DNA from: a virus
Strand: one strand, 5' to 3'
DNA length: 64,000 nt
Virus record (IMG/VR): IMGVR_UViG_3300042886_000261
Span: 32,001 to 96,000 of that record
Shown here: piece by piece, positions 3,890 through 42,664 of the stretch
Layout: the number at the start of each line of letters is the position of its first letter
Position numbering within the stretch: the first letter of the stretch is position 1
Made by a program: the position numbers and the translations under genes
The notes under the pieces: generated by a model
Database searches by the model: none
What the model was told of the DNA's origin: nothing
The model's input: the letters and a program-made list of their open reading frames with translations, nothing else

Positions 3890-4138
3890 ATGGTTTTGGA
3901 AAAGACACATAAAATAACATTGTATAATGATGACAACCATGATTTTTTATATATCATAGCTTGTCTCATTAAAATATGTAAGCACTCACCTGATCAAGCT
4001 GAGCAGTGTGCTATAATAGTAGATAATAAAGGTTCATATGATATTATGTCTGGTGCATTTAATGATATCTTTGATATATATAACCAATTATCTGATCTAG
4101 AATTAAATGTAGAGATAGGTGAAAGTCAAGTTCATTAA
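3890..4138 (+). CDS. clpS: ATP-dependent Clp protease adaptor ClpS-like protein
   Basis: LYNDDNHDF..I..LIKIC.HS..QAEQCAIIV..KG matches the Bacteroidota ClpS pattern. Confidence 0.8.
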   Translation: MVLEKTHKITLYNDDNHDFLYIIACLIKICKHSPDQAEQCAIIVDNKGSYDIMSGAFNDIFDIYNQLSDLELNVEIGESQVH

Positions 4139-4417: not shown

Positions 4418-4780
4418 ATGAATAAAACAGAATTAGAAGAAGCTGCTGAAAGATATTACATAAACTGTATCCCATCAGATAGACATTCATTTATTAATGG
4501 TGCTTTATGGCAAGCTAAAAGAATGTATAGTGAGGCAGGATTTATTACTAACAATTTAATTATAAACACTATGGAAACAATTGACATAAAAGAACTATTA
4601 AAGTATTTAGTTCTAAACACTAACCAAAGCAGTCCTTTTCTCTCCCCTGAAATAACACATACCCTCGATCTTTATCCTTTATTAAATAAGATTGCAGAAC
4701 TAAGAGGTATGACTCCAGAAGAAAATGGAGAACAATACAACGCAATAGGTGATGAATTATTTCCACCTAAAATAATTTAA
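4418..4780 (+). CDS. Hypothetical protein, possibly a chimeric fusion
   Basis: LEEAAE...GALWQAKRMYSE N-terminal half joined to a second unit starting METIDIK. Confidence 0.55.
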   Translation: MNKTELEEAAERYYINCIPSDRHSFINGALWQAKRMYSEAGFITNNLIINTMETIDIKELLKYLVLNTNQSSPFLSPEITHTLDLYPLLNKIAELRGMTPEENGEQYNAIGDELFPPKII

Positions 4781-10753: not shown

Positions 10754-11482
10754 ATGAGTGAAGGATTAGTATTGCCCACTAAGAAAGTGAGTGCAACAAG
10801 AGTCAATCCAAAAAGATTAATTATTTATTCTAAGCCAAAGACAGGTAAAACTACTGCATTTGCTGGTCTAGAAGATAATTTAATTATTGATTTGGAGAAT
10901 GGGACTGATTATGTAGATGCATTAAAGGTTAAAGCAAGTAATCTTAAAGAGTTGCTAGCAATTGGTAAACAAGTAGTTGAAGCTGGTAAACCTTATAAGT
11001 TTATTACTATTGATACTGTAACTGCATTAGAAGAAATGGTAATGCCATTAGCTGTCAAAAAGTATAAAGCCACTAGTATGGGTAAAAACTTTGATGGAGA
11101 TAATGTAATTACTTTACCAAATGGAGCTGGTTATTTATATGTAAGAGAAGCATTCTTTGATGTTTTAAACTATGTAGACACATTAGCTGACCATATTATT
11201 CTATCTGGGCATATCAAAGATAAGCAAGTAGATGATAAAGGTGAAATGGTTATGTCTGCTAATATAGATTTAACTGGTAAGATCAAGTCTTTAATCTGTG
11301 CTAATGCTGATGCAATTGGTTATATGTTTAGAAAAGGTAATCAAGTATTCTTATCATTTAAAACTAATGAAGAGACAACTTGTGGTGCAAGACCTGAGCA
11401 TTTAAGAAATGCAGAAATAGTTATTAGTGAAGCTAATGACAAAGGAGAAATAGTTACTCACTGGGATGAGATATATAAATAA
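10754..11482 (+). CDS. Sak4-like/AAA_24 ATPase (recombinase/annealing protein)
   Basis: YSKPKTGKTT, IIDLENG, ITIDTVT, ADAIGY; lies next to SSB. Confidence 0.8.
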   Translation: MSEGLVLPTKKVSATRVNPKRLIIYSKPKTGKTTAFAGLEDNLIIDLENGTDYVDALKVKASNLKELLAIGKQVVEAGKPYKFITIDTVTALEEMVMPLAVKKYKATSMGKNFDGDNVITLPNGAGYLYVREAFFDVLNYVDTLADHIILSGHIKDKQVDDKGEMVMSANIDLTGKIKSLICANADAIGYMFRKGNQVFLSFKTNEETTCGARPEHLRNAEIVISEANDKGEIVTHWDEIYK

Positions 11483-16370: not shown

Positions 16371-16778
16371 ATGGAAAAAGTAGTACTGAATAGAGAAAGT
16401 GTTGAAAGTATATATGAAATGTATAATTCTCCTGATAAAGAGAATCATGTTGTTGCAAATGAAATACTAAATAATTGTGATATTGATGCATCTGAAGGAT
16501 GGTTAATTATATTTTATGGTATGAGTTTAAAAAGTGATGATTATTGGTTAGAAAATATGCCTAATGTTTTTGTTAGAGTCCGTGAATTAGGTATTCAAAG
16601 TGATCATAAGTTAAGTGCAGCACAACTTGTTAATGCTTTAATTGTTGCAAAAGTAGAACCTGGGATTATGGATTACTATTTAGAAATTCATGTTGAAGAT
16701 TTAAAAAGAGCAATGTCAAACTGGGGTTATCCAGTTAATAAATTAAATTACTCAATAACATTAAAAAATGAAGAGTAG
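16371..16778 (+). CDS. Hypothetical protein, paralogous to the C-terminal half of 19244..20497
   Basis: SIYEMYNSPDKENHVVANEILNN vs SLCEMFNSSDTDNHTMAMEIMAN. Confidence 0.7.
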   Translation: MEKVVLNRESVESIYEMYNSPDKENHVVANEILNNCDIDASEGWLIIFYGMSLKSDDYWLENMPNVFVRVRELGIQSDHKLSAAQLVNALIVAKVEPGIMDYYLEIHVEDLKRAMSNWGYPVNKLNYSITLKNEE

Positions 16779-17958
16779 AGAAGATAGTTTAGCAAAAACC
16801 AGTAAAGACTTGATGTTAAAAGAGCCCTATTATGGGTTCTTTTTAATCATGTTAAATAAAGTATGGAATAATAAAATAGTTCCTACTGCTGGTGTAAGTA
16901 AAAATAATATTAATTATCAACTTACAATTAATGAAGATTTCTGGACAAGTTTATCTGAGGATCATAGATTAGGTTTACTTAAGCATGAGTTACTTCATAT
17001 AGCTTTTGGTCATCTTACTATGTATTTTAAGTTTAGTGATAAAAAACTGGCTAATATAGCTATGGATATGGAGATTAATCAGTATATTTCAGATGAATTA
17101 CTACCAGAAGGTGGTATTAATATTGATGATTATCCTGATTTAAATCTTGATAGAAAAGCAGGTTGTAGATATTATTATGATAAACTACAACAGGCTAAAG
17201 AAGATAAAGACAAAAATGGCACAAGTGGTGATGATAATTTTGATAAGTTAGCTGATCAAATGGATGCTGGAGATGAAATGGCCAGTGATCATCCTACTTG
17301 GGCTGATTTTGAAGATATGACTGAAGCTGAGCAAAAGCTAATTGAGAAACAATTAAATAAAATTCTTAATGATGCTAAGGAGATGACTGAAAAGAAAAGA
17401 GGTAATATCCCTGGAGAAATTGAGGGTTTACTTGAAATGGAAGAAATTAAGCCTGCTAAATTTGATTGGAGAGGATATATCAGAAGATTTACTGGTGTAT
17501 CATCTAAAGTGTATACTAAAAAGATAAGGAGAAAAGAGAATAAAAGATATTCTGAGAATCCTGGTCTTAAGATTAAAATGAAACAACACATGTTGTTGGC
17601 TATTGATACTTCAGGATCAGTATGTGATCAAGAGTTACATGAATTTATGAATGAAATATTACACATCTATAAACAAGGTGTTGATATTACCATAGTACAA
17701 TGTGATACTGCTATCAAAAGCATAGAACCTTATAAAGGTAAAAATGAAATTGAGATATATGGAAGAGGTGGGACAGAATTTGATCCCGTCCTTGAATATT
17801 ATAATGAGAATATAAGAAAATATACTAGCTTAGTGTATTTTACTGACGGTGAGTGTTATACTAATGTAAAGCCAAAAGCTCCTATATTGTGGGTGCTGTC
17901 TGAGCAATCTTATATGAACACGGAACTTCCCGGAAAAGTTATTAAGTTAGAAATTTAA
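16768..17958 (+). CDS. DUF2201-type metallopeptidase plus VWA domain protein
   Basis: HELLH (HExxH) and N.A.D.EIN; MIDAS elements IDTSGS, GGT.F and FTDG. Confidence 0.88.
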   Translation: MKSREDSLAKTSKDLMLKEPYYGFFLIMLNKVWNNKIVPTAGVSKNNINYQLTINEDFWTSLSEDHRLGLLKHELLHIAFGHLTMYFKFSDKKLANIAMDMEINQYISDELLPEGGINIDDYPDLNLDRKAGCRYYYDKLQQAKEDKDKNGTSGDDNFDKLADQMDAGDEMASDHPTWADFEDMTEAEQKLIEKQLNKILNDAKEMTEKKRGNIPGEIEGLLEMEEIKPAKFDWRGYIRRFTGVSSKVYTKKIRRKENKRYSENPGLKIKMKQHMLLAIDTSGSVCDQELHEFMNEILHIYKQGVDITIVQCDTAIKSIEPYKGKNEIEIYGRGGTEFDPVLEYYNENIRKYTSLVYFTDGECYTNVKPKAPILWVLSEQSYMNTELPGKVIKLEI

Positions 17959-19243: not shown

Positions 19244-20497
19244 ATGAAAGAGACATTATTTATAGAGATGGAGATTGCAAATGGTGATTGGTATGATAAT
19301 CATGATATAAACTCTTTATCTTTTAGGTTTGATATAGATACTAAAATATGTGATTTTGATAATGTGAATGATAATAAAATATTTAACACAGTATCAACAG
19401 GTTATATACCTACATTAAATGATAAATTATATTTTGCAAAAGGAGTTAATATTCCAAGAGTAAAACTTAAAAATCTTGCAAAAGATTACAAAATTAAATC
19501 TACTACTAATTTAACAGATGCATCAGCAATTTTTGTTTCAGAAAATAGTAATTCAAAATACACAACTTGTCAATGGACATATACTGTTGATACTGTTGAG
19601 TTTAAACAATATTTTGAAAATTATTTAGCTTTAAACTTAGGTGATGATTATTATAATCAAAAAGTAATAGATGCATTAGAATTTTATACTGAAGAATCAA
19701 TTGGAGTTTCATATAATACAAGAGGTTTTCTTGAAAGTTCACATATTCCATTTAGATTAACATCTGGTACTAGTTATTCTTCTAAAAGATATAATAAAAT
19801 ACAAGATGAATATCTTAGTGCTTATAATGAAATAAATAATTCAACTCTACCAGTATATGATGAATCAGAATTACTAAAACACCTTAATGGAAATGAGGCA
19901 TTAGGTATTGATTCTGATATGTATGATAGCTTGTGTGAAATGTTTAATAGTTCTGATACTGATAATCACACAATGGCTATGGAAATCATGGCTAATTCAA
20001 ATTTTGAAGACAGTGTGTTATATCTTAGTTTACTATTTTATTCATACTCTGGTCAAATGCAGCAATGTAGAAGTAAAGGACATGTAAATTTTAAATCATT
20101 ATTATCTCTAATGACATTACCAAGTTCATATTTTAGAATGAATATTGATGATGTTATGGATAAACTGAAAAAGCATAAACAATTAACTAAAGAAAATGTT
20201 GACATAGTGCTAAAGCTCCACGGGGATGATATAACTGATGGAGGTAATTCTTTATATTTTAGAGTAAAAACTATTACTTTATGTACTGAATATCTTGAAG
20301 TTATGGATTTTAATTATACTTTTGTAGTGCAAGAAGATTTTGTTGCATCATCCCCAGAAATTGAATTACCTGATTTAGAAGAAGAAGCAGTTGTTGCATC
20401 TATTGCAACAGAACCTGAAAAGATAGATAAAGTCTTAATTGACTTTGATAATGTGAATCTAGAATTAAAAACAAACACTGATGGCTATTTCTTATAA
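19244..20497 (+). CDS. Hypothetical protein with possible BRCT-like N-terminal domain
   Basis: KLYF.KG..IPR.KLK.L.....K.T..L..A..IFV resembles a BRCT pattern. C-terminal half is shared with 16371..16778. Confidence 0.55.
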   Translation: MKETLFIEMEIANGDWYDNHDINSLSFRFDIDTKICDFDNVNDNKIFNTVSTGYIPTLNDKLYFAKGVNIPRVKLKNLAKDYKIKSTTNLTDASAIFVSENSNSKYTTCQWTYTVDTVEFKQYFENYLALNLGDDYYNQKVIDALEFYTEESIGVSYNTRGFLESSHIPFRLTSGTSYSSKRYNKIQDEYLSAYNEINNSTLPVYDESELLKHLNGNEALGIDSDMYDSLCEMFNSSDTDNHTMAMEIMANSNFEDSVLYLSLLFYSYSGQMQQCRSKGHVNFKSLLSLMTLPSSYFRMNIDDVMDKLKKHKQLTKENVDIVLKLHGDDITDGGNSLYFRVKTITLCTEYLEVMDFNYTFVVQEDFVASSPEIELPDLEEEAVVASIATEPEKIDKVLIDFDNVNLELKTNTDGYFL

Positions 20498-21488
20498 TGA
20501 AGAATTAAATCAATTTTATAATAGTGACTTTTATTTTAGTTACTCAAGTATTAATAAGCTGCTGTATTCACCGGCAGCTTTTTATAGACACTATATCTTA
20601 AATCAAAGAGAAGATATGGTTGATGCTCATTTAGTAGCAGGGAAAGTAGTACATTGTTTACTACTTGAACCAAAGAATTTTGATAAAGAATTCATAGTAA
20701 TACCTGGTAATCTTCCAAAAGATAACAACAGGTTATTAGTAGATGAAGTCTTTAAGGTTTATCAATCACAACCTGATACTGATTTAACATTAACTGATTT
20801 CTCTGATTCAATAATTGATGTACTTGCAGGTATTAACTTGTATCAGTCATTAAAAAATGATGAAGGTAGAATTGCAAAAATGACAACTGAACAGAATATG
20901 CAGTACTTTGAATTTTTAAAAGTAAAGCAAGGTAAAACTATTGTGGATCAAACCACACTAGACACAGCAAAAGAATCTGTAGAGTTATTAAGAAAGCATC
21001 CAATTGTGAGTGAGTTGATGCAACTTAATGGTGATATAGATGAGAATGTTAAGATCTTTAATGAAGAAGGTGTACAGATAAAATCAAGTAAGTATAAATT
21101 TGGTTTTAAAGGTATCTTAGATAATGTAGTCATGGACTATAATACTAAGACTTTATTTATTAATGACTTAAAAACAACTGGTAAACCTATTCAGGATTTT
21201 CCAGACTCAGTGCAATATTATAAATATTGGATACAGGCCGTCATGTATAAACAGTTGAGTTTGGGTAAATATCTTAAAGGTTTACCTGATATGGCTGAAT
21301 GGAAAATTGTTATTACTTTTATTGTGATTGATAAAGCTAATTTAATTTATCCTTTTCAAGTATCAACAGAAACATTAAAGGTGTGGGAAGAAAATTTTAA
21401 AGAGATATTGACAGTTGTAGACTATCATTATACTAATAAGGATTTTACTCTTCCATATCAATTAGCAACCGGTAATGTAAAACTATAA
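20481..21488 (+). CDS. PD-(D/E)XK exonuclease (RecE/ExoVIII, DUF3799-like)
   Basis: SYSSINKL, G..VH..LLEP, KGILD, DLKTT, Y.IQ...Y. Confidence 0.85.
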   Translation: MAISYNEELNQFYNSDFYFSYSSINKLLYSPAAFYRHYILNQREDMVDAHLVAGKVVHCLLLEPKNFDKEFIVIPGNLPKDNNRLLVDEVFKVYQSQPDTDLTLTDFSDSIIDVLAGINLYQSLKNDEGRIAKMTTEQNMQYFEFLKVKQGKTIVDQTTLDTAKESVELLRKHPIVSELMQLNGDIDENVKIFNEEGVQIKSSKYKFGFKGILDNVVMDYNTKTLFINDLKTTGKPIQDFPDSVQYYKYWIQAVMYKQLSLGKYLKGLPDMAEWKIVITFIVIDKANLIYPFQVSTETLKVWEENFKEILTVVDYHYTNKDFTLPYQLATGNVKL

Positions 21489-29000: not shown

Positions 29001-29333
29001 AAACATGTTAATAGAATTAATACCTTCTAGATGTCTAAATTCATCAGTTAATTTTTTTTGTCTTTCTTCTTTTGCTGTTTGATTAATTAATTTTTGACCT
29101 TGAAGTATTTTTAATTGTTTTTCTAAATGCACCCAAATTTTATCTACCATAGTAGATATATCATCTTTTTTTACTTCAGAAGTATCAGCTAATTCAACAT
29201 CAGGTATATAATTTAAATCTTTATTTAAATCAAAACCCTGTCTAATCCACTCTTCTTCAGCTCTAGTATCATTACCATTTGCTTCATTAAGTATTTTTAT
29301 ATACTCCTTACTGGTTTTAATTGGGCAATACAT
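26016..29333 (-). CDS. Large virion/ejected protein (last of the RNAP-associated block), with C-terminal TM helix
   Basis: 1105 aa; hydrophobic VIIFGTTAFIMLLMHAF followed by DDDDE; position typical of crAss-like large cargo genes. Confidence 0.7.
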   Translation of the reverse strand: MYCPIKTSKEYIKILNEANGNDTRAEEEWIRQGFDLNKDLNYIPDVELADTSEVKKDDISTMVDKIWVHLEKQLKILQGQKLINQTAKEERQKKLTDEFRHLEGINSINMFVKDSYDKALEIEKLMKAIINKKDDGTDKFKKDRIVELTNLNTFANSYNILDEISKADIYSFFTAKEGEEEVSEKTGKTIREMLTDAISIRKAVKEQYIKQGIPLMASFLLNYKSLSIDDAINKELVELVKKLEAEKTSAKPNDKKIKAITERIAKFQSFTQTQESMEELLKFASRDEGALEFWFGPLISNEDASLGLFAKAIKTEFEGARQLDIDIAKLAGKQFTKYKDSQSESRDTPAKFNEGLYEELISHGKNNNGEPTITKRMAFVQKYDINKYNEAQNKLYSATKLGPNPTDAEIIANSNFEANKSTILRDWYAKNAQKKSDEEIDKILLEKNKLVNNGIWNQEDYDKWHKSVLQIKKDGTKIYMKEFSEPADMYLNKKWEALYDKNDKPKNAKGEYHSFLLNLYLDAQEKVPDAQKRGYILPSIHKRSIERSSIKSVIKDKIKDVTSIRGDETDFNLSNLADEGAKFIPVYYTQDMDADEVSLDLIRSVELYSQMANKYEAVNNISAETSMFKAIIGDREVAETNSKGVAVLDSLANKLGIKSNIKKQGEANSKRHVDAFINMQLYNEMQNAEILGNYSMGKLTNLALGYSAITSIAADLLKGMANNLQGNIQLIIEANSSEFFSKKDLRKGKLYYAKNLTSFLSDFGKPTAESLVGNLVNHYDALQGNYKDQYGKNVSGSVFAKLMRTDTLFFNQHFGEHEIQVSAMFALMEATKVTDTNTGETISLLEAYTKYGLEEIEKNTDFTNKKKLDLQDRIHAISKKLHGVYNEFDKGTAQRYSVGRLAIMYRKHLLPGYKRRWGRLKADQELGAVTEGYYMTFYNTMLKDLSKMKLNMMQNWSTYTPFEKAQIKRVMAETVIIFGTTAFIMLLMHAFGDDDDEKKGYAYNFMLYELSRMQSETAAYISPQDAYRTVKSPSAMVSTVERMTKFVSQFFLTWDPEKLNYQRKEGVWNKGDNKSWAYFLKLMGFSGYNFTPEAAVKSFKSTLLK

Positions 29334-29351
29334 ATTGTTTAGAATTTTTAA

Positions 29352-30137
29352 TTAACACAAATTTTTAAGTACTTTAACCATTATTTTGACTAACTGAGAT
29401 TCAGTAGTAATTACTTCTAATTCATCAAATATATCATTAATGTCAATACCTTTATAAGCAAGTTGTTCTTCTGTAAATAGATTTAACATAGTATCATTTA
29501 CAAAAGAATTATATGCTTTTTGATCATATGGCTTTAAAGATACTGGTTCTTTTACTAATTCCATGGTATCCAGATTAATATTTTTTAATAATATTATTTT
29601 ACCTGATAGATCTGTTATATCATATGTACCAGTAATATTATTTAAAATAGCTTTTGAGCCACCAATTATAACTGATCTTGGTTTTTTACCAGTTTTTTCA
29701 AGTTCTTTTTTATACTCAGTTTGAATTGGATATTCTTCCTCAACCTCTACAATATCTTCTACTTCTGGTATAAAGATATCTTCCTTGTTTTCTTGATCAA
29801 ATAAAGCTTCATCATCATTATAAAAACTAGTATCTTTTTCATCAAAATCTTTTTCATCAAAATCTCTTTCACCAGACATTATTGCTAGTTCTTCTTCTAT
29901 ATCTAATTGAGCATCATATTTCTCATCAACAACACTATCAAGAACTTTTTCAGAGATATTTATTATAACTCTATCTTTATCAATAGTACTTTTACTAGCT
30001 AAATTAGAATACTTATCATTAATATCTTTTATGATTCTTTTAGCATTAAAATCACTATGGGTAGTATTTCTATACCCACCTAATTTGTCATCAATTTCCT
30101 TATTTAAATCTTCTTTAATTTGTATTTTACAAGCCAT
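29352..30137 (-). CDS. Acidic 261-aa protein with Cys at both termini (putative linker cargo)
   Basis: MAC... ...KNLC*. Confidence 0.7.
   Translation of the reverse strand: MACKIQIKEDLNKEIDDKLGGYRNTTHSDFNAKRIIKDINDKYSNLASKSTIDKDRVIINISEKVLDSVVDEKYDAQLDIEEELAIMSGERDFDEKDFDEKDTSFYNDDEALFDQENKEDIFIPEVEDIVEVEEEYPIQTEYKKELEKTGKKPRSVIIGGSKAILNNITGTYDITDLSGKIILLKNINLDTMELVKEPVSLKPYDQKAYNSFVNDTMLNLFTEEQLAYKGIDINDIFDELEVITTESQLVKIMVKVLKNLC
29832..29865. repeat. 15-bp tandem repeat (DFDEK x2)
   Basis: ATCTTTTTCATCAAA x2. Confidence 0.8.
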
Positions 30138-30147
30138 GATATTATTA

Positions 30148-33100
30148 TTAACAAGATTTTTTATAAAGTGAAGCTGCTTCTAATATTCTTTTTTTAGTTA
30201 AAGGATCAGATACTGTTTCTTTAGCTAAGTTAGTTGTTCCTGAACCTAATATAGTATTATCTGAAAGTACATAGTAATTAAATTTAGTAGCTGGATCAGT
30301 AGACACTCTTAATGTACCATCTTGTAATTCTTTTCTAATATACACTTTATTTTTAATAGTTTGCTCAGTTAATTCTTTACCATTACCAAAATATATTTTA
30401 CCATCTGGTTTAATTGTAAAAGTATATTGATCTACTTTTATATTTCTTTCTTCTGGTTCAGATTTTTTAACTATAACTTCTCCAGTTTGTCCATCAGGAA
30501 CTTCTTCTTGTAGTTGTTTTACTATTGGTGCAACATTAGAAACATCAGATGCTTTATTAGTATAAACATAATCCATTTTAGATGTTCTACTTAAACCAAC
30601 ATATCTTAACATATTTCTTTCATTACCGTATGGTTTACCATTATAACTAATAATTTTATTATTAGCTGGGTTATCCATATTTTCATAATCTACAAATACA
30701 TTATCATATGTAGAACCTTGAGCTTTATGTGCTGTTACAGCATAACCATAATCAATATTTTTACTAAAAAATGCTTTAATATTTAATTTTTCATATTGTG
30801 ATGTACCATCTGCTTCTATTTTAAATAACTCAGGTCTTTCTTTTTTAAGAATTGACATTGTAGTAGGCTCATTTTCAAATAATAGTACATCATCTGGGAA
30901 TTGATATTTACTAAATAATGCATCTAATTCTGAACTAGCTTTAGCTCTAAATTTCCAAGCAATAGTATTATTATTAATAGCTTTTTTTACATCTAAAAAT
31001 TGCATTAATATATTTAAATTATTAGAATCACGTGGATTTATAATAAAAACTTTTTGAGGTTTTAATAATTGAGGACTGTGTGTTTTTATTAACTCAGTAT
31101 CACTTTCATTAAAAACTCTTTTAACTTCTATATTCCATCCAGAAAGTTTTCCTTTAATAATATGTGTTGTATTTAAAATACGCTCATTATATAATGAAAC
31201 TTCTTTTGATTCTTGATACTCATTACTTATTACAGTATAATCTTGTCCATTATTAATTATACTATCAGCACTTGATTGCTCATATCCCATAAGAGTTGAT
31301 CCTACACCATATGATTCATCAATATTCATACTTGAAAAAATTTGTTGATTATAAAGAGCAACAGATATATTTGAGTATGTAATTATTTTAGCATATGCTG
31401 GATCTTTTTTATACTCTTCTGAAGTAAAAGCATCAAACATTTTATTTTTAAATTCAGTTTTATCTTTTATAAAGTTAACACCTTCACCTTCACTATTTAT
31501 TTCTGTATCAAAATTAAAATTTTCATTTATGTCTAACATATTATTTCTAACACCAGTAATAATTTTTAAAACAGGGTTATCTTCTTTTTGTCTCATGATT
31601 TCTGTTAACTCATATCCTTCATTATCTTTAGTGTATGTTAATGCTGGACTTAATGAACTATTTCCTACAGGAGGTAACTGAGCAGGATCACCCATGAATA
31701 TTACTGTAGTGTTTTCATCTTGTGCTAAATCATAAATATCTTTATAATCAGAATTATCAATCATAGATGACTCATCTATTATTAAAATTCCATTACTTGG
31801 TACTGCATGATTAGGGCCTGGTTGAAAAACACCATTAATTTTACGTTTATTTAAAAGTTTAGCAGTTGTTATAGGTTTTTTAGTAACACCTCCTCTAATT
31901 AATTGTACTAATAAATTTATAGATGCTTTATGTGTAGGAGCTGCATATACTATTTCTTTCATACCTCTATGTTTAGTATTTACATAAAGTTGAATAAATT
32001 TAGCTATTGTACTTTTACCAGTACCCGCATAACCTTTTAAAACAAATTTTGTATTTTTATTATTAATGGCATCAATTGCTAATTGTAAAGCTGTTTTTTG
32101 TTGATCATTTAATCTTATAATTCCTGTTTTAATTTCAACACCATCACTGAATGTAAAAGTATTATTAAATGATACTGGTTCTCTTTTTTTAATTACAGTT
32201 TCTATTTTAACTACTGGAGCTTCACTTACTGTAACATTTTGTTGTTGAGTAGTAGCTTTAAATGTATTAGTATATACATCTCTAATAGCTTGTTTTGCAG
32301 CAGCTTCTACTTCAGGTCCTTTATACTGAGCTCTAGGTACCCATTTACCATCTTTTTGTACATTGTAATTTTCTATATCTCTAGAACCTACACCAGCAAA
32401 GTTTTTAGTAAGTGCTGGTGTGCTTATTTCTTTCCAACCATTATAATCCCACTCTTGTTTAGTTTTATCATAACCTTTATCAAGGTATTCTTTATCTTGA
32501 GTGTACCATTTTTGGGTATCTAAATCAAATACATATACTGGTTTACCCATTTTTATACCTAACTGGACAGCAGTATTTGTTCCACCCATAACTTCAGGTT
32601 TTGTAGTAGGTTTTATTTCAGCAACAGCAAATACAGCATCTGCATTAGCTACTTGATAATAATTTCTTACTTGTAAATTTCCTTGTAAAGTATCTGGGTA
32701 GCTTTCTCCAAGTAATCTCTCTACTTCAGTACGGGCTTTATCCATTTGTTCTTTAGTAAGAACTGTAGCTTTAACACCTGCATTTCTAAGTTTTTGAGAT
32801 AAATTTGGATTACCTGCATCTTTATAATGTCTTTGATCAGTAACACCAAACTCTCTACCTATTGTATCCCAGTATGTATCTCCACCATATGCTCCACCAG
32901 AATGATTAGTGTATTCTGATGCAGCAACACTAGTAGATGGTTGAGTAGTAGGTATATTATATTCATTAATGTCAGCATACCATTTACCAACTTTATAGTT
33001 TGCATAATTTACAGTATCAAATTGTTCATATAGTTTAATACCATCTCTGTTGTACTCATTGTACTGCTTTCTTTTTTTAACAAAGTTGCCTTTATTTGTA

Positions 33101-36100
33101 GGCTCCGAAAACTCAATATAAATACCATGATTACCAACCATTAATCTACTTATTGTAGGTTCAAGTTGTTTAAGCACATCTTTATTTTCTACAGTTAATG
33201 TTGAATTATCTGAACCTAATGTTATTTTTCCTAGTTGTGGGTAATCAGTGTTTAATTTTTGAATATAAACATTTCTAATTTGTTTATTAATTTCTTCTAT
33301 TTCAGAAACACTTTTTGTTTTTTCAAGATCTCTTATAAATTGTTGATAATAACCCGTTTCTACATATTTCCTAAATTTATTATACCATTCTGTATCAACA
33401 CTAGTAGATGGTTGATCAGTAGCTTTAAATATAATTGAATCATCAATGTAATTATTTACATTAGGGTCATTAGCAATCATCATAGCTGCAATTTTATCAA
33501 AAGTAGATGTATTCATCTTATTAGAAATAAATTCTCTAGATGCTGGTTCTACTATTTCAAAATATGTAGTATCAGGAAGAACATAACTAAGACCATATTT
33601 AGTATTACCTACTCCATTCTGTAAAATAGATATAAGTGGTAATATTTTAAACATGTCTGATATTTTTTTATTCTTAACTGGATCTTTTACTTTAATAACA
33701 TTTTCATCAGCAAGATCAATTAAGTTTTGATGATAACTATCAGCTAGTGCTCCTTTTACTACAGGTTTATTATTTAATGTTAATACAGATATCTGACCTT
33801 TAATTGTAAGTTTTTTAGTTTTAGCATCAAATACCTGATCTTTAATTGAGAAATTTTTAGAATTATATATATTTACCGGTACATCAGTAATTTGTTCTAG
33901 TACTGAATACAATTCTTTTAAGTGACTGTTTTCACTTATCATACTCATGAACCTAGTTACATATGCTTGGTGATTTAAAGTACTAAATAATTCTGGTACA
34001 CCTGGGAATGGTTCTTTAGTAGTTATTATCTCATTTAATCTGTTTTGATAAATATAATTTACCATTGCTTGTTTAAATGATGTGATAAAATTAGTTATAC
34101 CATCTGCTCCTTCACCAAATTTAAGTGGAATATTATTATTTTTAATATAATTAAGTAAATAAGTAGATACTCTTTTATCATCTGTTAAAGGAAATATAGG
34201 TTCTACTAAATCTTGAGTAATAACATTATCAAAGAAAGATCCTAATATAGACTCTTTTCTTAATTTTCTTACTAGGTCTTGATCTATTTTAGATGACTCA
34301 GATAAAATATCTAAACCAATTTTTCTTTGCATGATCTCCTGTATGGTTTTAGAAGTAGCTGTATCAGGATTTGACTGTCTTTTAAGATCAGCCATATCTT
34401 TTATTTGTTTTTCATACTCTAAATAATGTAAAAATATTGCAATAGCTTTTGGACTTGTAGTATCATTAGTAGTCATTGTACCTTTTAAATCCGCTGTTGT
34501 AAATTTATCCATACCTTCAGTTGCTGCAAGTACAACATCTTTATAATTTGGAGTAGACATTGGGTGATAATATTCATTAGTAGGATCAGCAATTATACTT
34601 TTAAATAATGGGCCAGTTTCAGAACTGTTAATTAATTCAATATCATTTATATTAACTTTATCAGCTTTTACATCTGCAATTAAGCTTTTTAATGTTGTAT
34701 CATATGATTTATCAATACCAGATAGTTTTACTGATACCTTAGCTTCTTTATTATAACCTTTTATTGCATTATTTAATCTTGTTCTATTTGCTTTATAAAT
34801 ACTTTCTGAGATATTAGTTTGTTTTAATACATTTAGAAGTGCATTATATTTTTTATTTTCATCAGATAATGTTTCTTTACCAGTAAGATTTGCATATGTA
34901 CTAGCATATAGTCTTTGTTGATTTGCATATTCTCTTACTAGTGGTTGAGATATAAAATAAACGGCATCTCTTTTTGGTACACCAGCTTTAAGTAAATTCA
35001 ATAACATTGGTATAAGTTCTTTATTAGCTTGAATAAAGAAGATCCATGCATCTTTCTCAACATCTACAGAACCATTCATTAAGTGTGAAAATAAATCTGC
35101 TATTTTATCTTGGCCATCTGCACTATTAATACCTGATAAAGAAATTCTTCCATCTTCAGTTTTATTATGATCAAGTAATAATCTCATTTCATAGATTATA
35201 CTTTTATCATCTTCATATTTTTTAGTCTTTGGATTTTTAACTGAGCCATAATATGTTTTTGGTAGAGCAGCACCTAATGCTGTATACAATGGATGTAATG
35301 CATTTTCAAGAGCAATAATACCTAATACATCTTTCCCTGTCATATTAGCTTCATGCTTATGTAAGTTATAACCTACTTCAAATACATTTGTTGGACTAAT
35401 AGTTTTATATCTTCCATATTCAGGTGAAGACTTTACTAAGTCATCTGCAATATCTTTCATTAAGTAAGTTTCATTTGGTCTTACTAATGTAGCATAATTA
35501 TCAGGTAGTTGTAATATACCTCTGATAGAATCAATTAATCTATTTTCAATTGCTTTTTTCTGTAATGCAATTAATTTAACTACTTGAGCTTTATCACCTT
35601 TAGATTCTGCATTTGCAATTAATTTTTTTAATGTTTCCTCAGATATATTAGATGTTACATAATTACCATTTTCATCTATATTAGGCATGAATGTAGTAAG
35701 CTTATCAACATCATAATCTGCTCCTGATTTAGCAACAATTTCTGATGGAGGAATAATAATAGAACCTGCAGCAGGATTTAAAAATTCATATACTTCCATA
35801 AATTCCATAGAGTTCATTCCTTGTACAGGGATCCTTACAGCTGATAAAGTAACAGATTTACGGTTATTATCTTTATTTAACCACTCATCATCTTTAATTA
35901 ATTCATTTAATCTTTTTCTTGTACCTATTTCTATACCATCAAGATCTTTAAGTTTTAAAAGATTTTTAAAATCTCCTTGTAATGCAATAGCAACTTTCAT
36001 TGCAGATGTATTACCATTCTCACCTGGATTATAGAAAGGTAAGTTATTAGTACCTAAGTATTTTTCTATTTCTGCAACTTGAGCTTTCTCAAATTTAAAA

Positions 36101-39100
36101 CCTGAATCCCATAATCCATTAGTCATTGAACTAGCAACTTGTACTAATGCTTCACCTTTTACTTTTTGTTTTACTATTCTTTTCTCAACAAGTGATGTTA
36201 TCATTTTTTCAATATCTCCTGAGAGCATGTGTAATGATAAATCTTTTGTTAAAACATTATTAGAACCAACTTGAATATAGTCAATTAAATGTTCTGGTAA
36301 ATCCTTTCTAGTAAGTTCTCTTTGAACTACATCCATGAATTTAGTTAAATCACCACTAACATATTTACCATCTTTATATTCATAACCAATTTCATTTAAT
36401 AATTCAATTTTTAATATTTCAGTATTAGCATTTACAGCATCTTCATAAGCTTTAATAAATGGTGCATTGTCATCATTTACAATTTTACCATTTTTATATA
36501 AACCTTCAAGAATAAGTTTTCTTAACTGAGTAGCAAATATTGTTTTACCTTTTAATTTAATTGGAACAGCTGTAACATTTTTAAGATATGCTAAGTATAT
36601 TGTATTTGGGGTAAACTTAATATCTGACTTTAATGTTTTTTGAGCACCGTTATCATCATATATTTGATCTGCTACTGCTTTACCATCTTTATCTAATTGA
36701 GATGTTATACTACCTACTTTAGAACCAGTTTGGAATGTAGCATACTGTATATTACTTTTCATCATTTGATGATGTAATGACTCTAAATCAGAACCAACAA
36801 TAAGTGATGGAATTAATGGCATTAATGCAAATTTATGCATTGCATTAACTGGTAATGGTGTATTAGCTAAATGACCAAAATGTTGTAATTTATATACAGG
36901 AAAAATTTGTGTTATATCTTCAGTATTAACTTCTTTACCACTAATTACTTTTTGGAATAAATCTTCTTGTTCAGATGACCAGTTCTTTTCAGCAAGTCTT
37001 AATAGACGGTATGCATCAATAGTTATATAACCTTGACCATCACCTTCTTCCATTTCTTTATATGGTTTTAATTCTTTCTTTAATCTATAATCAATTTCTG
37101 ATTGAGATAATCCTCTGTTTTTATAATCTTCCCTTAAACCTTTTTCAATATTTTTAATATATACTGAACTTCTTTTAACTTCCTGCATGATAGCAGTGTT
37201 ATAAGTTTTACTGTAATTAAATGGAGCATACTCACTACCAAATTCATCCATAGTTGCTAGCTTAGCACCATATGATGTATTTTTAATTGTGTAACTATTT
37301 AAAAAGTCTTGAGTATAAATATCATCCATGAATCCTCTACCACCTGAAGTAGAACCTGGATTTCTTTTATGTAACTCTTGTTTAGCATGATTATACTGTA
37401 CAATATCACCATATATTAAACTAGCAGTCTCAAAATTATGAATCCATGCATTCATTGTATGTGCTTTAATAAGCATTGTTTCTTCAGCATCAGTTGATAA
37501 TTCAAACTTTTTTAAACTATTTGTTAATGCTGGGTCAATCCATTTAGATTTCTGAAAATCTTTCTTGTTATCAGCAGACTGTCTTTCAAAATATGCACTT
37601 ACTTGCTCAGTTATATCTTTTTTTAATTTAGGATCTGATTCTAAATAATCAAGTAATTTACCATTTTTTACTTTCTCAATTATTTCTTCTTTAGTATCTT
37701 TAGTTAATATATTATCAAATGCAGTAAAGAATTCACCAGCTATTCCAATAACAGTTTCACCATCAGCAGATTTAATTTCTCTATTATAACCTACATATTT
37801 TTTATACTCTTCTTTATTAGTTCTTATTTTTTGTATTCTAATTAACTCAGCTTGAATATAACCTAAGAATATATTATCAACAGCATATTGATCAGCATCT
37901 CCTCCTGGTTTAAATTTATCTATATCAACATATAAATTTTTTAAATTAGTAGACTTCATACCAAATGATGATGATTTAGAAGCATGTCTCATAAATTCTT
38001 GAAAACCTGATTTTAACATCATGTTTAATTCTTGAATATATTTACTATGAACATCAAGAGATGTAGTATTAGCACCATCAACATTAACTATTTGAGTACC
38101 AGATACCATTACAAGATCTAACTTAGCATCTCCTTTTCTTGCCCATGTATTTTCTTCAACTTTAAATATAGTTTTAAGTAATTGTGATTGCTCAGTAAAA
38201 CCGTTTATCAATGGATTAAGATAACTCATATAGCTATATGTTGGATCCATCCATAAATCTCTACCATTTTTAACATTATTAATGGCATCAACTTGCATAG
38301 TAACAGTACTATCTTCTGTAAATTCATTTACAAGTTTTTTCTCTGCATTTAGTACACTAAAACTTGCATAATTATTACCAAATTTACTTTGTAATCTTGC
38401 TAAATTTTGTATTACAGATTTTTCACTTGTGGTTTTTTTATATATACCTGCAGGCATTTTACCATATAATGCATCAATAGGATTATCTATGAATTTTTTA
38501 ATAAATGCTTTTTGCTCATCATTAGTAAGTTTTGGATCTTTATTTAATGTATGAACTGATTTTGCAATTTCATATAAATAAAAAACACCATAATCTTTAG
38601 CACCTAATTCATCCTTAATACTCTTTAAATCTTGTAAACCAACACCTAATGCATTAACAAATTCAATTTGTTGTGCAGGTAAATCAACAGATGCAGCAGT
38701 AGGAAAAGCTTTAATTAATTCATCAAGTTTTAATGTTGACTTATTATTTTCAGCTTTACTAATATATTTAGTTTCTGCAGATGAATTAAAAGCACTTTTA
38801 AAACTATTTATAACATTTTTAAATTCAATTGAAGCATCAGTTACTTCAGATTTATAATCACCTGTTTCTTCATCTTTATCAACTGTTAATTGAACATATC
38901 TTATTAAAGGTTTTTTAAAATCTTGCCAAAATGCTGCTTTGATATTAAATTCTTGTAATGTTTTAATATTTGTAGGATCTGGAAATTTTTTATTTACTAA
39001 TTGTCCTAATTCTGGATAGAAAGGTACAGCAGCTTGAAGCTTAAGATACATTTCAACTGGATTCTTTTCACCTCCAATTACTTTAGTAACTGTATTCCAT

Positions 39101-42100
39101 ATTTTACTAAAGTCAACTAATTCTGGAAAACCTAATGGTCCTTCTACTTCTTTACCATCAACTATTTTAAATAGACTTTTTAAAATATAAAGAGTCTCTT
39201 TTTCAGCTAATTGCATTAATGATTTTTTACCTACTTCTTTATTTGAAAATATTTCTGTTTCTTGAGCTTCTTCAGAAGCAGTTGTATCTCCTTCTATTTC
39301 AGTTTCTTCTTCATCTATTTCAATATACTTTTGCTTAATTAAATCAAATGTACTATGTTCTTTATGAAACTCTAATATATTATCCCAATTAGCAATTGCT
39401 GTTTCTAGTATTCTTATTTTATTATTTAATAAACTTCTTTTATTAAAATCTTCTTGAGCAGTAGCTTCTAGTTCTGTTTTAAATTTAACAAGTTTTTCAT
39501 TAAATCTTCTTTTAGTTCTAGCATAAGCTTCTATTTTATTTTTTTCAATTGTTAATATTTGAATAGTTCCAGTTTTATTTACTGTTACTAGATTTCCTGC
39601 TGAATCTTTAACATTATTAATGCTTTGAGCAAGTCTACCATCATATGTTTCATCAATAATTTTTGATAATACAGAATCAATTTGATTAGATACTTTAAGA
39701 CTATCTTGATAATTTAAAACAAGTTCTTTTGTTTCAGTATTAAATACACCTCTTGCTCTATTAAGCTTGTTAAACATATGGTTATCAACAAGTGGAGTAT
39801 ACTTGTTTAAAAGCTTAGGGTTTTTACTTGCAAAAAATAATTTTTCAAATAAATTTTCTTGAATAGATCTTTTACCAAATAATGCTTTAATAAAATTCCA
39901 TATTCTTCTGAATATAGTATTTCTTATAGGAGCATCACCTACAGCTTTAGGATCTTTAGCATACTCTCTAAAATCTTCAGCAATAATTTCTTCTACTTCT
40001 TCTGGAGAAAGTTCATAATTATTTAATCTTTTTCTAGTTTCAGCATATAACTTAGTCTTTTGTTTTTTAGTTAAGTATAATTGAGAAAATGCATGCCAAG
40101 CTTCATGGTATAAATCTACAGCAGAACTACCAGTAGCTGTATCTAATTGTATTGAAACATCTGATAATCTTTTACCTGCTATAATAAATCTTGCATAAAC
40201 ATCAGAGTTAACAATGTTAGCCATGTGTTCAAGCTTAATAAGTTTAGATAAAGGAGAATTATCCCACCACTCTTTAGCAGCAGTAATTTCTTCTTGAGTA
40301 ACATTATTAGGTAACTTAGAAGATCTATCTAATTCAAATGGTATATCACTTTCTTCATCAGGTTGATCAACTTTATCTGGATTAATAATTACTTCATCTT
40401 TTTTAGCTGCTTCTTGTTGTGGAGTACCAGGTGCTTTAGTAACTTTTGGTTTTAAAGTAAAATCCTTTTCACTTACTTGACCTATTTTTTTATCTCCTTT
40501 GTATATTGAAACTACATTATTTTTTGGCTCACCTTTGTTTGTAATTATATCATTAACTATAAAAGTTACAGGATCATTTGAATTTATGTCATTTGATGAT
40601 ATACCTGGTTCATATCTACCTTCCACTGTTACACCATCTACTTTCATTAAAAATGTAGCATTTGTTTTAGACATACCACTTAATATAGTACCAGATAAAT
40701 CTTTATTAACTTTTAATTTAAGAACAAGATCATCTTTAGCTGCTTTAATTTTATCTACAGTAGAAGATTTTACTTCTTCTTTAACTTTTTCTGTTTCAGC
40801 AATAAAATCTTTATCTATTCTAAATTGAAAGTATGGATTATTTACTGCATCACCTTTGTTAGTTTTTTTATCAGCAGGATTTAAAATTTTTAAGTCTAAT
40901 GATAAAAGAAAGTCCTTATAATCTACAGCATTAAATTTACCAGTATTACGGTTATAATTATAAAATGTTTTACTACCAGCAAGTATTTCTTTATTATAAC
41001 CCATAGTAGTTGCATATGTCAAAGTTTTTGCATTAATCCCTTGATTTTCATATGTAACTGTGCTTTCATTTAATAAATTATCAATTATAATTTGTTCAAC
41101 TTTTGGATCTGTAAAATCTTTTATTGGTATTAATAATTGTTTATTTTTTATTGGATCTGGTCTATATCCTCCAGTAAGTGTACCAGTAACATCATTATAA
41201 TTTACAAATAGTTTTCTTGTTGATTGAGCATTAATAGTATTATGAGTAAATTGTAAATAAAAATCATTTTTCTGTTTATTATTTAATTTAGGATTTACTA
41301 ATACAGCAGCAATTTGATTTATATATTCTTCAGGTAAATTAGTTCTATCAATTGTATAATTAACATCATTTATAAGTATTTCAGCAGTAAATGTTCTTGG
41401 ATTAATTTTAATATTTAATTTATTTTCTGGTGTTTTAGTTGCAGTAAGTAATTTTTTTAAAGTTGGATTTTCTTTATTAAAGAAAATATCAACAATACCA
41501 GCACTTATATCTGTTATATTTAATAACTTAGGTTCACCACCACGTACTTCATCTCTTAAGTCTTGTAATTCTTTAAAACTACTTTGTTGTTTATTATCAA
41601 CTAACTCAAGAAAGTCTTCATATGTTGTACCCTGATCAATTAACCATTTCTTATATGACTCCATACTCATTTCTTTTTTATGAGCATCTTTTTCAATTAA
41701 TTCTGCAGGTGAAATAATTCTATCTTCTAGACCATATATATCTGTAACTCTTAATTTATCAGAATTTTTTTCAGATCTTACATCTCTTAAAAATTGATAT
41801 ACAGGTTTACCACCATCTTCTTTAGATACTATAGAACCTTCTTCATCAAAATGTAATGTATTTCCATCCACATCTGATAAAACTAATACAACAATATCTT
41901 TAGCTTGAGTAACATTTGGATCTTCTATTTTATCTTTTACCATACTATTACTTCTAATAATATGTGCAACAGTAGTTGCATCTAATGTCTCTTCACCATT
42001 AAGACTTAATAACATTTTAGGTCTAAGTTTAATAACTTTACCTTGATAAATTAATTCAGGTCCACCTTCTTTTCTTACACCTTTTTCTTTAATGGTTCTT

Positions 42101-42664
42101 ATTGTTCTGTATATTCTTTCTTTATTAGGATCTTTTTTTTCTTTAGCTCCAGTATCTTTTTCATTAGGTGTTCTAGGAGAAAATTCTTGCATTGTAGAAG
42201 TTAAAGCATCATCTGCTTGCCATCTAAATGGATCATTAAGCATATTAAGAAAGTCATTACCTTGATCTGATAAAGGAGTATTTAATATACCTTTTTCTAT
42301 CTCCATTCTAAATTCTAAATCTTCTAGAGTAGCTTCAGGTCTAAAATGTTTTAATGTCTCAAGTAAACCATTTTCTGTATTTCTGAATTTAGTAATTAAT
42401 TCTTTATTAGCATTTAAATCAAAATCAAAATCACTTGTATCTATTTCATCTTGCTCAACTGCATTCTTCATTAAAGTAGGTACAATTTGTAAAAAAGTAG
42501 ATGCAGTATTAACATCTGTTTTTTTTTTGTATTTCTTCAAATAGATCAGTCATAAATTCTTCTGGAGCAAAAGCTTCATTAGACTCTAAAGAATTAAGCA
42601 TTTGTTTATATATTAACTTATATAAATTTTCAACTTGTGTTTGTGATAATGAACAGTTTACCAT
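30148..42664 (-). CDS. Giant virion RNA polymerase polyprotein (~4,170 aa): zincin metallopeptidase, crAss-type double-psi-barrel RNAP, unknown domain, SLOG domain and SF1 RecD/Dda-like helicase. Contains a +1 frameshift at the A10 run 42519-42528
   Basis: HEAWH (40093-40107); RIP.QG and GADYDVDK (35701-35724); SGGA.G.D, RN..., GGT, AGVGSR; GYAGTGKS, APTHKA, DESSM, GDPAQLPPV, HKAQGST. Leader MVNCSL... starts 4 nt after the upstream stop. Confidence 0.88.
32244..33430. repeat. Direct-repeat linkers bounding domain cassettes in the RNAP gene
   Basis: CAACACTAGTAGATGGTTGA at 32925-32944 and 33396-33415; GTTGAGTAGTAG at 32244 and 32940; AGTAGCTTTAAAT at 32251 and 33418. Confidence 0.85.

Follow-up and report, generated by a model that had tools for sequence, protein, structure and literature searches.

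A polyvalent protein and comparable systems

The polyvalent proteins of phages and conjugative elements are known from the domain architectures described by Iyer, Burroughs, Anand, de Souza and Aravind in 2017 (PMC5512222). The present report concerns a protein of this kind from a freshwater crAss-type phage, together with a short repeated DNA sequence, here called the joint, that borders several of its domains and probably serves in their exchange. The stretch of DNA analyzed (the window) is 64 kb long, and comprises positions 32,001 to 96,000 of the 106,750-bp IMG/VR virus record IMGVR_UViG_3300042886_000261, which is 90% complete. Within the window, a giant open reading frame (ORF) at 30148–42540 on the minus strand encodes 4130 amino acids (aa), arranged as an N-terminal region, a region with an HEAWH (HExxH) motif, a crAss-type virion RNA polymerase (RNAP) core, a cassette array and a C-terminal tail.

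With the RNAP core, a domain here called M1, a SLOG/DprA-like domain and a Dda-like helicase united in a single ORF, the protein is of the polyvalent type defined by Iyer et al. (2017), and its basis is a crAss-type virion RNAP. Like the published examples, it belongs to a set of giant multidomain proteins with a metallopeptidase motif (here putative), a virion RNAP core, cpYpsA/SLOG domains, helicases, enzymes of NAD/ADP-ribose metabolism and nucleic acid modification, and variable architectures; the published proteins are delivered together with the DNA. Unlike them, it has a joint, fixed in both nucleotide sequence and reading frame, at the breakpoints between domains. Nothing of this sort appears in PMC5512222, where the word "linker" is not used and recombinational variability is mentioned in passing, for one kinase system. 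In some crAss-like phages, the RNAP is fused with its neighbors into a polyprotein with a zincin domain (bioRxiv 10.1101/2020.03.07.982082). The core of the present protein is homologous to gp66 of phage phi14:2 (PDB 6VR4, chain 6vr4_A; E 2.6e-21, query 380–736 against chain 930–1256); in a tblastn search it matches the phi14:2 gene g066 (E 1e-20), and it also matches RNAP genes of crAss-like phages. A putative DxDxD-type motif (ADYDVDK, read from the translation) lies within the core and may correspond to the DFDID motif of gp66. However, gp66 has 2194 residues in 6VR4, compared to 4130 here, where an apparently swappable cassette array follows the core. Homology to the virion-packaged gp66 suggests that the giant protein is packaged and injected as well. 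The HEAWH motif, seen in the sequence only, is upstream of the core in a region that is conserved among relatives and has no match to Pfam or NCBIfam profiles. No close relative was found in the GenBank "phages" collection, where matches were limited to the helicase part and to distant crAss-like RNAPs.

Several other systems bear comparison. In the CdiA-CT/Rhs proteins, a VENN-type pre-toxin motif demarcates the variable C-terminal domain, chimeras fused at this motif are functional, and domain replacement is thought to occur via homologous recombination on the conserved side (PMC7662968). The joint is similar in that a short conserved motif precedes every variable cassette. However, CdiA/Rhs proteins have one variable tip, an immunity gene, downstream orphans and homology upstream of the motif, whereas the present arrays contain as many as seven cassettes in one ORF, with a joint on both sides of each cassette and homology limited to about 21–26 nucleotides (nt). 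Neither immunity genes nor promoterless orphan copies were seen around the 115 joints described below, and in the window the ORFs next to the giant one are large virion-type genes. The T-even tail fibers reportedly exchange their adhesins by recombination between conserved motifs (Tetart et al. 1998), and the idea of "linkers" is said to go back to Susskind and Botstein (1978) and the modular theory of phage evolution. These, too, are short conserved sequences proposed to act as mini recombination sites by which functional segments are swapped. The T-even motifs, however, are conserved as protein (His boxes, glycine-rich) within one homologous gene family, while the joint is conserved more strongly at silent positions and links unrelated folds. 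In integrons, the cassettes are whole genes with structured attC sites that are moved by a tyrosine recombinase (attC/attI, IntI). Like integrons, the arrays described here consist of independent cassettes with a recurring site at their borders, and their content varies between close relatives. Unlike integron cassettes, however, those of the phages are domains that share a reading frame, their site does not fold significantly, and the phages examined encode no tyrosine recombinase. Shufflon and invertase systems are different again, since the window's genome has no resolvase/invertase gene and no joint is inverted. The nearest analogues are, in function, the CdiA toxin-tip swapping at VENN and the T-even adhesin motifs and, in layout, the integron.

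The repeat in the window

The sequence CAACACTAGTAGATGGTTGA is present in two exact copies in the window, at 32925–32944 and 33396–33415, with no others even when up to 3 mismatches are tolerated. (No match was obtained in 100 dinucleotide shuffles of the window with 3 mismatches allowed, and the whole 106,750-bp record holds no further copies within 3 mismatches of the 23-mer form of the joint.) Both copies are on the coding (minus) strand and in the same frame, where they encode (D/T)QPSTSV(D/A) and enclose 149 residues. A reading of this DNA from the letters alone (the sequence-only reading) had pointed out a perfect 20-bp repeat encoding QPSTSV around a domain of about 150 aa, and in this it was right.

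Joint 1 (33394–33417, minus; GAT CAA CCA TCT ACT AGT GTT GAC, DQPSTSVD) is found at the end of the RNAP core and has 2 mismatches to the 23-nt consensus. It is followed by M1 (32947–33393, minus), a 149-aa domain of unknown function that extends from joint to joint, and then by joint 2 (32923–32946, minus; ACT CAA CCA TCT ACT AGT GTT GCT, TQPSTSVA), which has 1 mismatch to the consensus. The second cassette (32254–32922, minus) is a SLOG/DprA-like nucleotide-binding domain with a weak match to cpYpsA, and ends at joint 3 (32221–32253, minus; ACT ACT CAA CAA CAA AAT GTT ACA GTA AGT GAA, TTQQQNVTVSE). The sequence-only reading had taken the latter as a third linker that closes a SLOG domain. The domain was confirmed by its match to phrog_768 (DprA-like, SLOG; E 3e-13). 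The linker fared less well by itself, having only about 12–15 nt in common with the other two, which is too weak, but comparison with relatives makes it a decayed copy. In a close relative (locus L064), homology to the window restarts exactly at joint 3, where L064 reads ...VTTKSVIE; another phage (L006) has an intact canonical joint where its homologous SLOG domain ends, ...AIRDVYANTFK; and in a related strain, from run X6, one contig terminates at 32244. These observations show that the third linker is a decayed joint.

The stretch is present in lake-water metagenomes. Its arrangement is real, since a Logan contig from run X2, which may be the source sample, covers 29300–33592 with zero differences. 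The run X6 strain is about 95% identical to the window, and its contigs end at 32244, 32932 and 33415/33424. One of them, 2421 nt long, matches the window at 32932–33415 only, which corresponds to M1 from joint to joint, and has another 1928 nt outside this match; the next contig starts at 33424. Such a pattern would be expected if the assembly graph forked at each joint, but, coming from contigs and not reads, it is only a hint. The SLOG stretch in run X6 was also considered as a sign of absence or deletion; this was dismissed, the contig depth being very low, the apparent "joints" at 32947 short-sided and a bridging contig lacking.

The joint in other phages

The core of the joint is ACTCAACCATCTACTAGTGTT, usually with CT before and GAA after it. 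The joint is 21–26 nt long, in frame, and encodes TQPSTSV(E), within a conserved block of about 26 nt (CT ACT CAA CCA TCT ACT AGT GTT GAA). All the sequence data considered here are metagenome assemblies. A scan for the exact 20-mer found 15 IMG/VR contigs, the 23-mer ACTCAACCATCTACTAGTGTTGA added 24 further metagenome contigs (freshwater lakes, sediments, Tara), and the variant with T instead of C at position 7 another 23 viral contigs. With up to 4 mismatches, there are 115 copies in 64 phage loci, 90 of them non-redundant, in 73 distinct upstream and 58 distinct downstream contexts. The loci were thus ascertained in part by exact nucleotide match, which is offset by a degenerate scan, by additional sites within the loci and by relatives ascertained through the core. 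All 115 joints fall within long ORFs, whose median length in the locus is 2159 aa, always in the same reading frame and in direct orientation, with flanks that are unrelated between contigs. Most of the carrier ORFs are homologous to the window's core, at 21–63% aa identity, and no other junction k-mer in these ORFs behaves like the joint.

An 18-nt core was also found in two contigs from metagenome-assembled genomes (L062 and L063), but chance alone should yield about as many copies of an 18-mer in the roughly 600 Gb of genome contigs, and these were discarded as cellular joints. One of the copies is in an ORF of 842 aa that is unrelated. The other (L062 382–399, from a Bacilli genome) is in frame, …YE QPSTSVE VSKKSKK…, close to the C-terminal end of a small ORF (158 aa) of membrane-like character, and is probably a coincidence. 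A full-text literature search for QPSTSV returned unrelated papers only, and no publication describing the joint.

What happens at the edges of the joint? There are 92 pairs of non-redundant sites that share one flank only, and no pairs that share both; a shared flank here means at least 60% identity over 60 nt (often 90–100%), with the other flank at background (<45%). In the alignments, identity gives way to noise at the very border of the 23-mer. Individual cassette families turn up repeatedly beside different neighbors, including GFQGY..., PT(I/V)D(L/T)SREW..., REYTPENIT..., SNDIYSQLENK... and EGV(Q/E)ELF(D/E)S..., as well as the DUF7831 modules and the SLOG module.

The relatives L064–L067 were retrieved with the end of the core and are not ascertained through the joint. 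At the nucleotide level, L064 is 94–97% identical to the window in the core and the helicase (94–97% up to joint 1 and 93–97% from joint 3 on). In between, however, it carries seven cassettes, compared to two in the window, and the intervening sequence is unrelated. The seven are an unknown domain of 136 aa, a 2OG-Fe(II) oxygenase, an A1S_2505-type domain of 147 aa, a NADAR domain and three unknowns. in L065 and L067 (82–84% aa), the core is followed by a decayed joint, a single module of 115 aa and then the C-terminal tail, without the helicase; L066 (67% aa) has a joint and a SNDIYSQ module, then 2OG-Fe(II), cpYpsA and NADAR; and L007 has yet another set of cassettes. The domain order is thus not fixed in the relatives; a fixed order would have spoken against recombination. 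A second array site exists in L049, L052 and L057, where joint-flanked modules (NADAR, unknowns) are inserted between the N-terminal and HExxH regions (aa 278–657 in L049, aa 563–743 in L057). This corresponds to residues ~601–695 of the window's protein, where there is no joint.

All seven joints of L064 carry the same C to T change at position 7, which suggests homogenization within the array. The further idea that arrays speak a "dialect", being uniform for either C or T at this position, was abandoned, since it rests on L064 (7/7) and other arrays are mixed.

Conservation of the joint at the DNA level

A codon-degenerate scan with ACNCAACCNTCNACNWSNGTNGA, in which the third codon positions were left free, gave 34 matches. 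Fifteen were in giant ORFs of low-GC phages, 14 of them with the identical 23 nt; the remaining 19 were chance matches in short ORFs of higher-GC contigs (0.34–0.59). In a search of the collected ORFs by peptide, blind to the nucleotides, 38 of 39 TQPSTSV sites shared one 21-nt spelling, for which the probability from the codon usage of the ORFs themselves is 0.005. Overall, the consensus codon is used at 417 of 429 consensus residues.

The changes that do occur are distributed in a way that is the reverse of what is normally seen in coding sequence under selection for the peptide. They fall 86, 25 and 7 times at codon positions 1, 2 and 3, respectively, making the third position the least variable, and within full codons only 7 of 69 are synonymous and 62 nonsynonymous, compared to about 25% synonymous expected for random mutation. 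The common variants are replacements, namely P>S and E>K/N/V/T/A. As a control, homologous cassettes at 30–60% aa identity (51–68% nt) use the same codon at 63–76% of their identical residues, while the joints of these diverged cassettes mostly differ at 0–3 of 23 nt, with some decayed joints reaching 7. The joint is therefore conserved at the DNA level, the opposite of selection on the peptide. The identity at synonymous positions that had been remarked on for the two copies in the window turns out to be general. Conservation as protein only, which would have told against a recombination site, is not what is found: the nucleotides are identical in spite of free third positions, and similarity breaks off at the joint.

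The cassettes

M1 was predicted by AlphaFold2 to be one compact domain over its entire length (pLDDT 94.8, pTM 0.86), so that the joints coincide with the borders of the domain. A search of 1.8 billion representatives gave 47 homologues, of which some are solo proteins of about 160 aa and others are embedded, at a variety of positions, in proteins as long as 5885 aa. The invariant residues include Y122, Q124, V128, Y130, A131, Y133 and Y139. In the phage locus L082, an M1 homologue is found between two joints, after a different module and before a cpYpsA-type module. M1 has no match in Pfam or PHROG, and no convincing fold was found for the model by Foldseek (best E 0.43) or VIA-align (best Z 4.6). 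The best VIA-align matches are to Yippee/cereblon-type beta domains over about 75 residues, and the lack of a convincing match is no evidence of a new fold.

The SLOG domain has a homologue in L006 (36% aa) with joints on both sides. The cassettes of relatives add NADAR, AlkB-like 2OG-Fe(II) oxygenase, cpYpsA, DUF7831 and many unknowns, and several cassettes are without a match in Pfam/NCBIfam. From this domain content, roles in counter-defence may be supposed. The 147-aa REYTPENIT cassette of L064 (7564–8004, plus strand), which also occurs in L038 and L053, matches the N-terminal domain of NCBIfam NF049995, "A1S_2505 family phage non-structural protein" (E 6e-27).

How might the cassettes be exchanged?

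The joint probably acts as an adaptor for homology-dependent, in-frame recombination, by which cassettes would be exchanged; the reaction itself is proposed from sequence comparison. The sequence-only reading had taken the linkers for short recombination sites that allow the in-frame insertion, deletion or swapping of domains, and this is supported by the conservation at the DNA level, the breaks in similarity at the joint and the differences between arrays. In the proposed scheme, the joint borders autonomous domain cassettes that are appended to the giant virion RNAP in a broad group of aquatic crAss-type phages. With the same sequence in the same frame in every copy, recombination between any two would yield an intact fusion protein. 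Cassettes would be exchanged or gained between co-infecting phages, and arrays would shrink or expand by events within or between sister genomes. Repeated exchange or conversion, instead of selection on the peptide, would then keep the DNA of the joint identical.

Which enzymes might be responsible? The window encodes a Sak4-like single-strand annealing protein (10754–11482, plus; phrog_124 E 6.9e-31), which is a candidate catalyst, and an exonuclease VIII-like exonuclease (20481–21488, plus; phrog_412 E 7.5e-25), a candidate partner for the annealase. The pair had been spotted in the sequence-only reading, and both genes are upheld by these matches. A Sak4-like match was also obtained in each of five other phage records that carry the joint, though the family matches cellular RecA-like proteins as well. 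Tyrosine recombinases (PF00589) were found neither in the window's genome nor in the five other joint-bearing records, in a search whose positive controls matched, and the window's genome has no serine recombinase (resolvase/invertase, PF00239). Folding of the 26-nt joint gave –1.7 and –2.1 kcal/mol (z –0.85 and –1.0), which is no better than shuffles. Because Sak4-like and ExoVIII-like genes are encoded, neither type of site-specific recombinase was found and the joint has no significant fold, homology-driven exchange is favored, and the most likely reaction would be short-homology annealing by the phage's own annealase together with its exonuclease; both the mode of exchange and the choice of catalysts are read from gene content and site properties. 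Positions 22–23 follow the downstream cassette, which means that the shared core consists of positions 1–21.

Several points weigh against this picture. No recombination event has been directly observed, the evidence being assembled contigs. A length of 21–26 nt is short for efficient annealase-driven recombination, judging by the minimal homology of lambda Red and RecA. The phrog_124 family is unspecific, with matches in 13 of 14 cellular control genomes. The C/T variant at position 7 is not coupled to the upstream flank, although a mere 7 nt separate the two (concordance 0.41, versus 0.52 background; n=17). It is tied to neither flank, which a simple model with a crossover anywhere in the joint does not predict; conversion fits better. 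Moreover, to keep the joint identical for the sake of future exchange requires either second-order selection or frequent conversion. Finally, a role of the peptide, as a flexible linker or a cut site for the HExxH domain, may coexist with that of the DNA.

Could the peptide be what matters, with the DNA identity a by-product? TQPSTSVE might be a cleavage site for the HExxH metallopeptidase or a head protease, or a flexible Ser/Thr/Pro linker. Autoproteolytic release of domains has been proposed for the polyvalent proteins (PMC5512222) and cleavage for the crAss-type polyprotein (bioRxiv 10.1101/2020.03.07.982082), and the joint does place a polar peptide exactly at domain borders, in a protein that contains an HEAWH motif. 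Yet it is the third codon positions that vary least, the synonymous changes fall short of the expected share, and the common variants alter the peptide, namely P>S, which runs through the whole L064 array, and E>K/N/V/T/A; in addition, M1 homologues are found in other giant proteins without such a peptide at their borders. The peptide alone therefore cannot explain the pattern, though it may have an extra role, and we consider this explanation unlikely. Passive hitch-hiking is about equally doubtful. Here, cassettes would have spread recently along with their borders by illegitimate recombination and selection for the reading frame, and the identity of the joints would simply reflect recent descent. 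Some cassettes are indeed nearly identical between contigs, and positions 22–23 go with the downstream cassette, but the joints mostly remain within 0–4 of 23 nt even where cassettes of the same family have diverged to 30–40% aa and the cores of the carrier proteins are only 21–63% identical, and one joint borders at least 58–73 unrelated contexts.

A dedicated site-specific recombinase or nuclease, making the system integron-like or homing-like inside a gene, would account for a fixed core of about 21 nt that recurs in direct orientation and brackets cassettes like att sites, as well as for the position 7 variant being uncoupled from both flanks. The window even has a gene for a 396-aa HNH endonuclease (16768–17958, plus; phrog_1314 E 1.5e-64), among the replication and recombination genes. 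Against such an enzyme stand the lack of a tyrosine or serine recombinase in the window's genome and of a tyrosine recombinase in the other five phages, and no gene has been shown to co-occur specifically with the joint. A hairpin or attC-like structure is ruled out by the fold energies, the joint having only a 5-bp dyad. The ACTAGT (SpeI-type) palindrome within the joint was likewise rejected as a nuclease site, since ACTAGT occurs 15 times in the window, compared to 21 expected, and is not otherwise avoided. All told, there is a slim chance that such an enzyme is at work. Far less credible still is the notion that the mosaic junctions are chimeras, formed when metagenomes were assembled across a short repeat shared by co-occurring phages. 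All the data are assembled contigs, which makes this worth asking, but identical arrangements came out of independent assemblies of different samples (L007/L042, L008/L009, L012/L055, L049/L052, L041/L047 and L005/L058), the run X2 contig agrees with the window over 29300–33592 without a difference, and the seven joints of L064 share a private variant. The repeat, at no more than 26 nt, is also shorter than reads and than the usual large assembler k.

Could the joint be something more general? It is conceivable, if a little short of an even bet, that the joint is a dedicated "standard adaptor" at the DNA level, which plugs a pan-phage pool of cassettes in frame into virion-delivered proteins, comparable to an integron or to exon shuffling inside a viral gene, and that it is one of several independent standards among phage groups. 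An adaptor of this kind would provide a concrete mechanism for reshuffling the toolkit that these phages probably inject ahead of the genome. The unit of exchange would be the single protein domain, with reading frames left unbroken, which would explain the architectural diversity of polyvalent proteins. The "linker" concept from the modular theory of phage evolution would thereby gain a clear molecular example and new life. On the practical side, a stretch between two joints is a self-contained module, many of them of unknown fold, and the joint can therefore be used as a cheap sequence tag to mine metagenomes for candidate counter-defence domains. It also suggests a natural design rule for the engineering of modular phage cargo in strains kept in the laboratory.

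Other features of the protein and the genome

The last part of the giant ORF (30151–32220, minus), beyond joint 3, consists of a Dda/RecD-like SF1B helicase cassette (AAA_30 E 2.4e-25; UvrD_C_2; phrog_325, Dda-like, E 6e-71) and a C-terminal tail of about 130 aa. The tail (30151–30540, minus; aa ~4003–4130) has no family match and is conserved at 45–70% aa whatever the cassette content of the relatives, including L041, L047, L048 and L065–L067, which have no helicase. Its role may be that of a signal for packaging, anchoring or ejection, which would have to stay C-terminal.

The window as a whole (1–64000) is extremely depleted in CpG, with 109 CG dinucleotides seen versus 1319 expected (observed/expected 0.08). 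TCGA occurs once, at position 4665, versus 167 expected, ACGT 24 times versus 167, GCGC 3 times and CGCG not at all. The depletion points either to avoidance of restriction or modification directed at CpG or to a strong bias in mutation.

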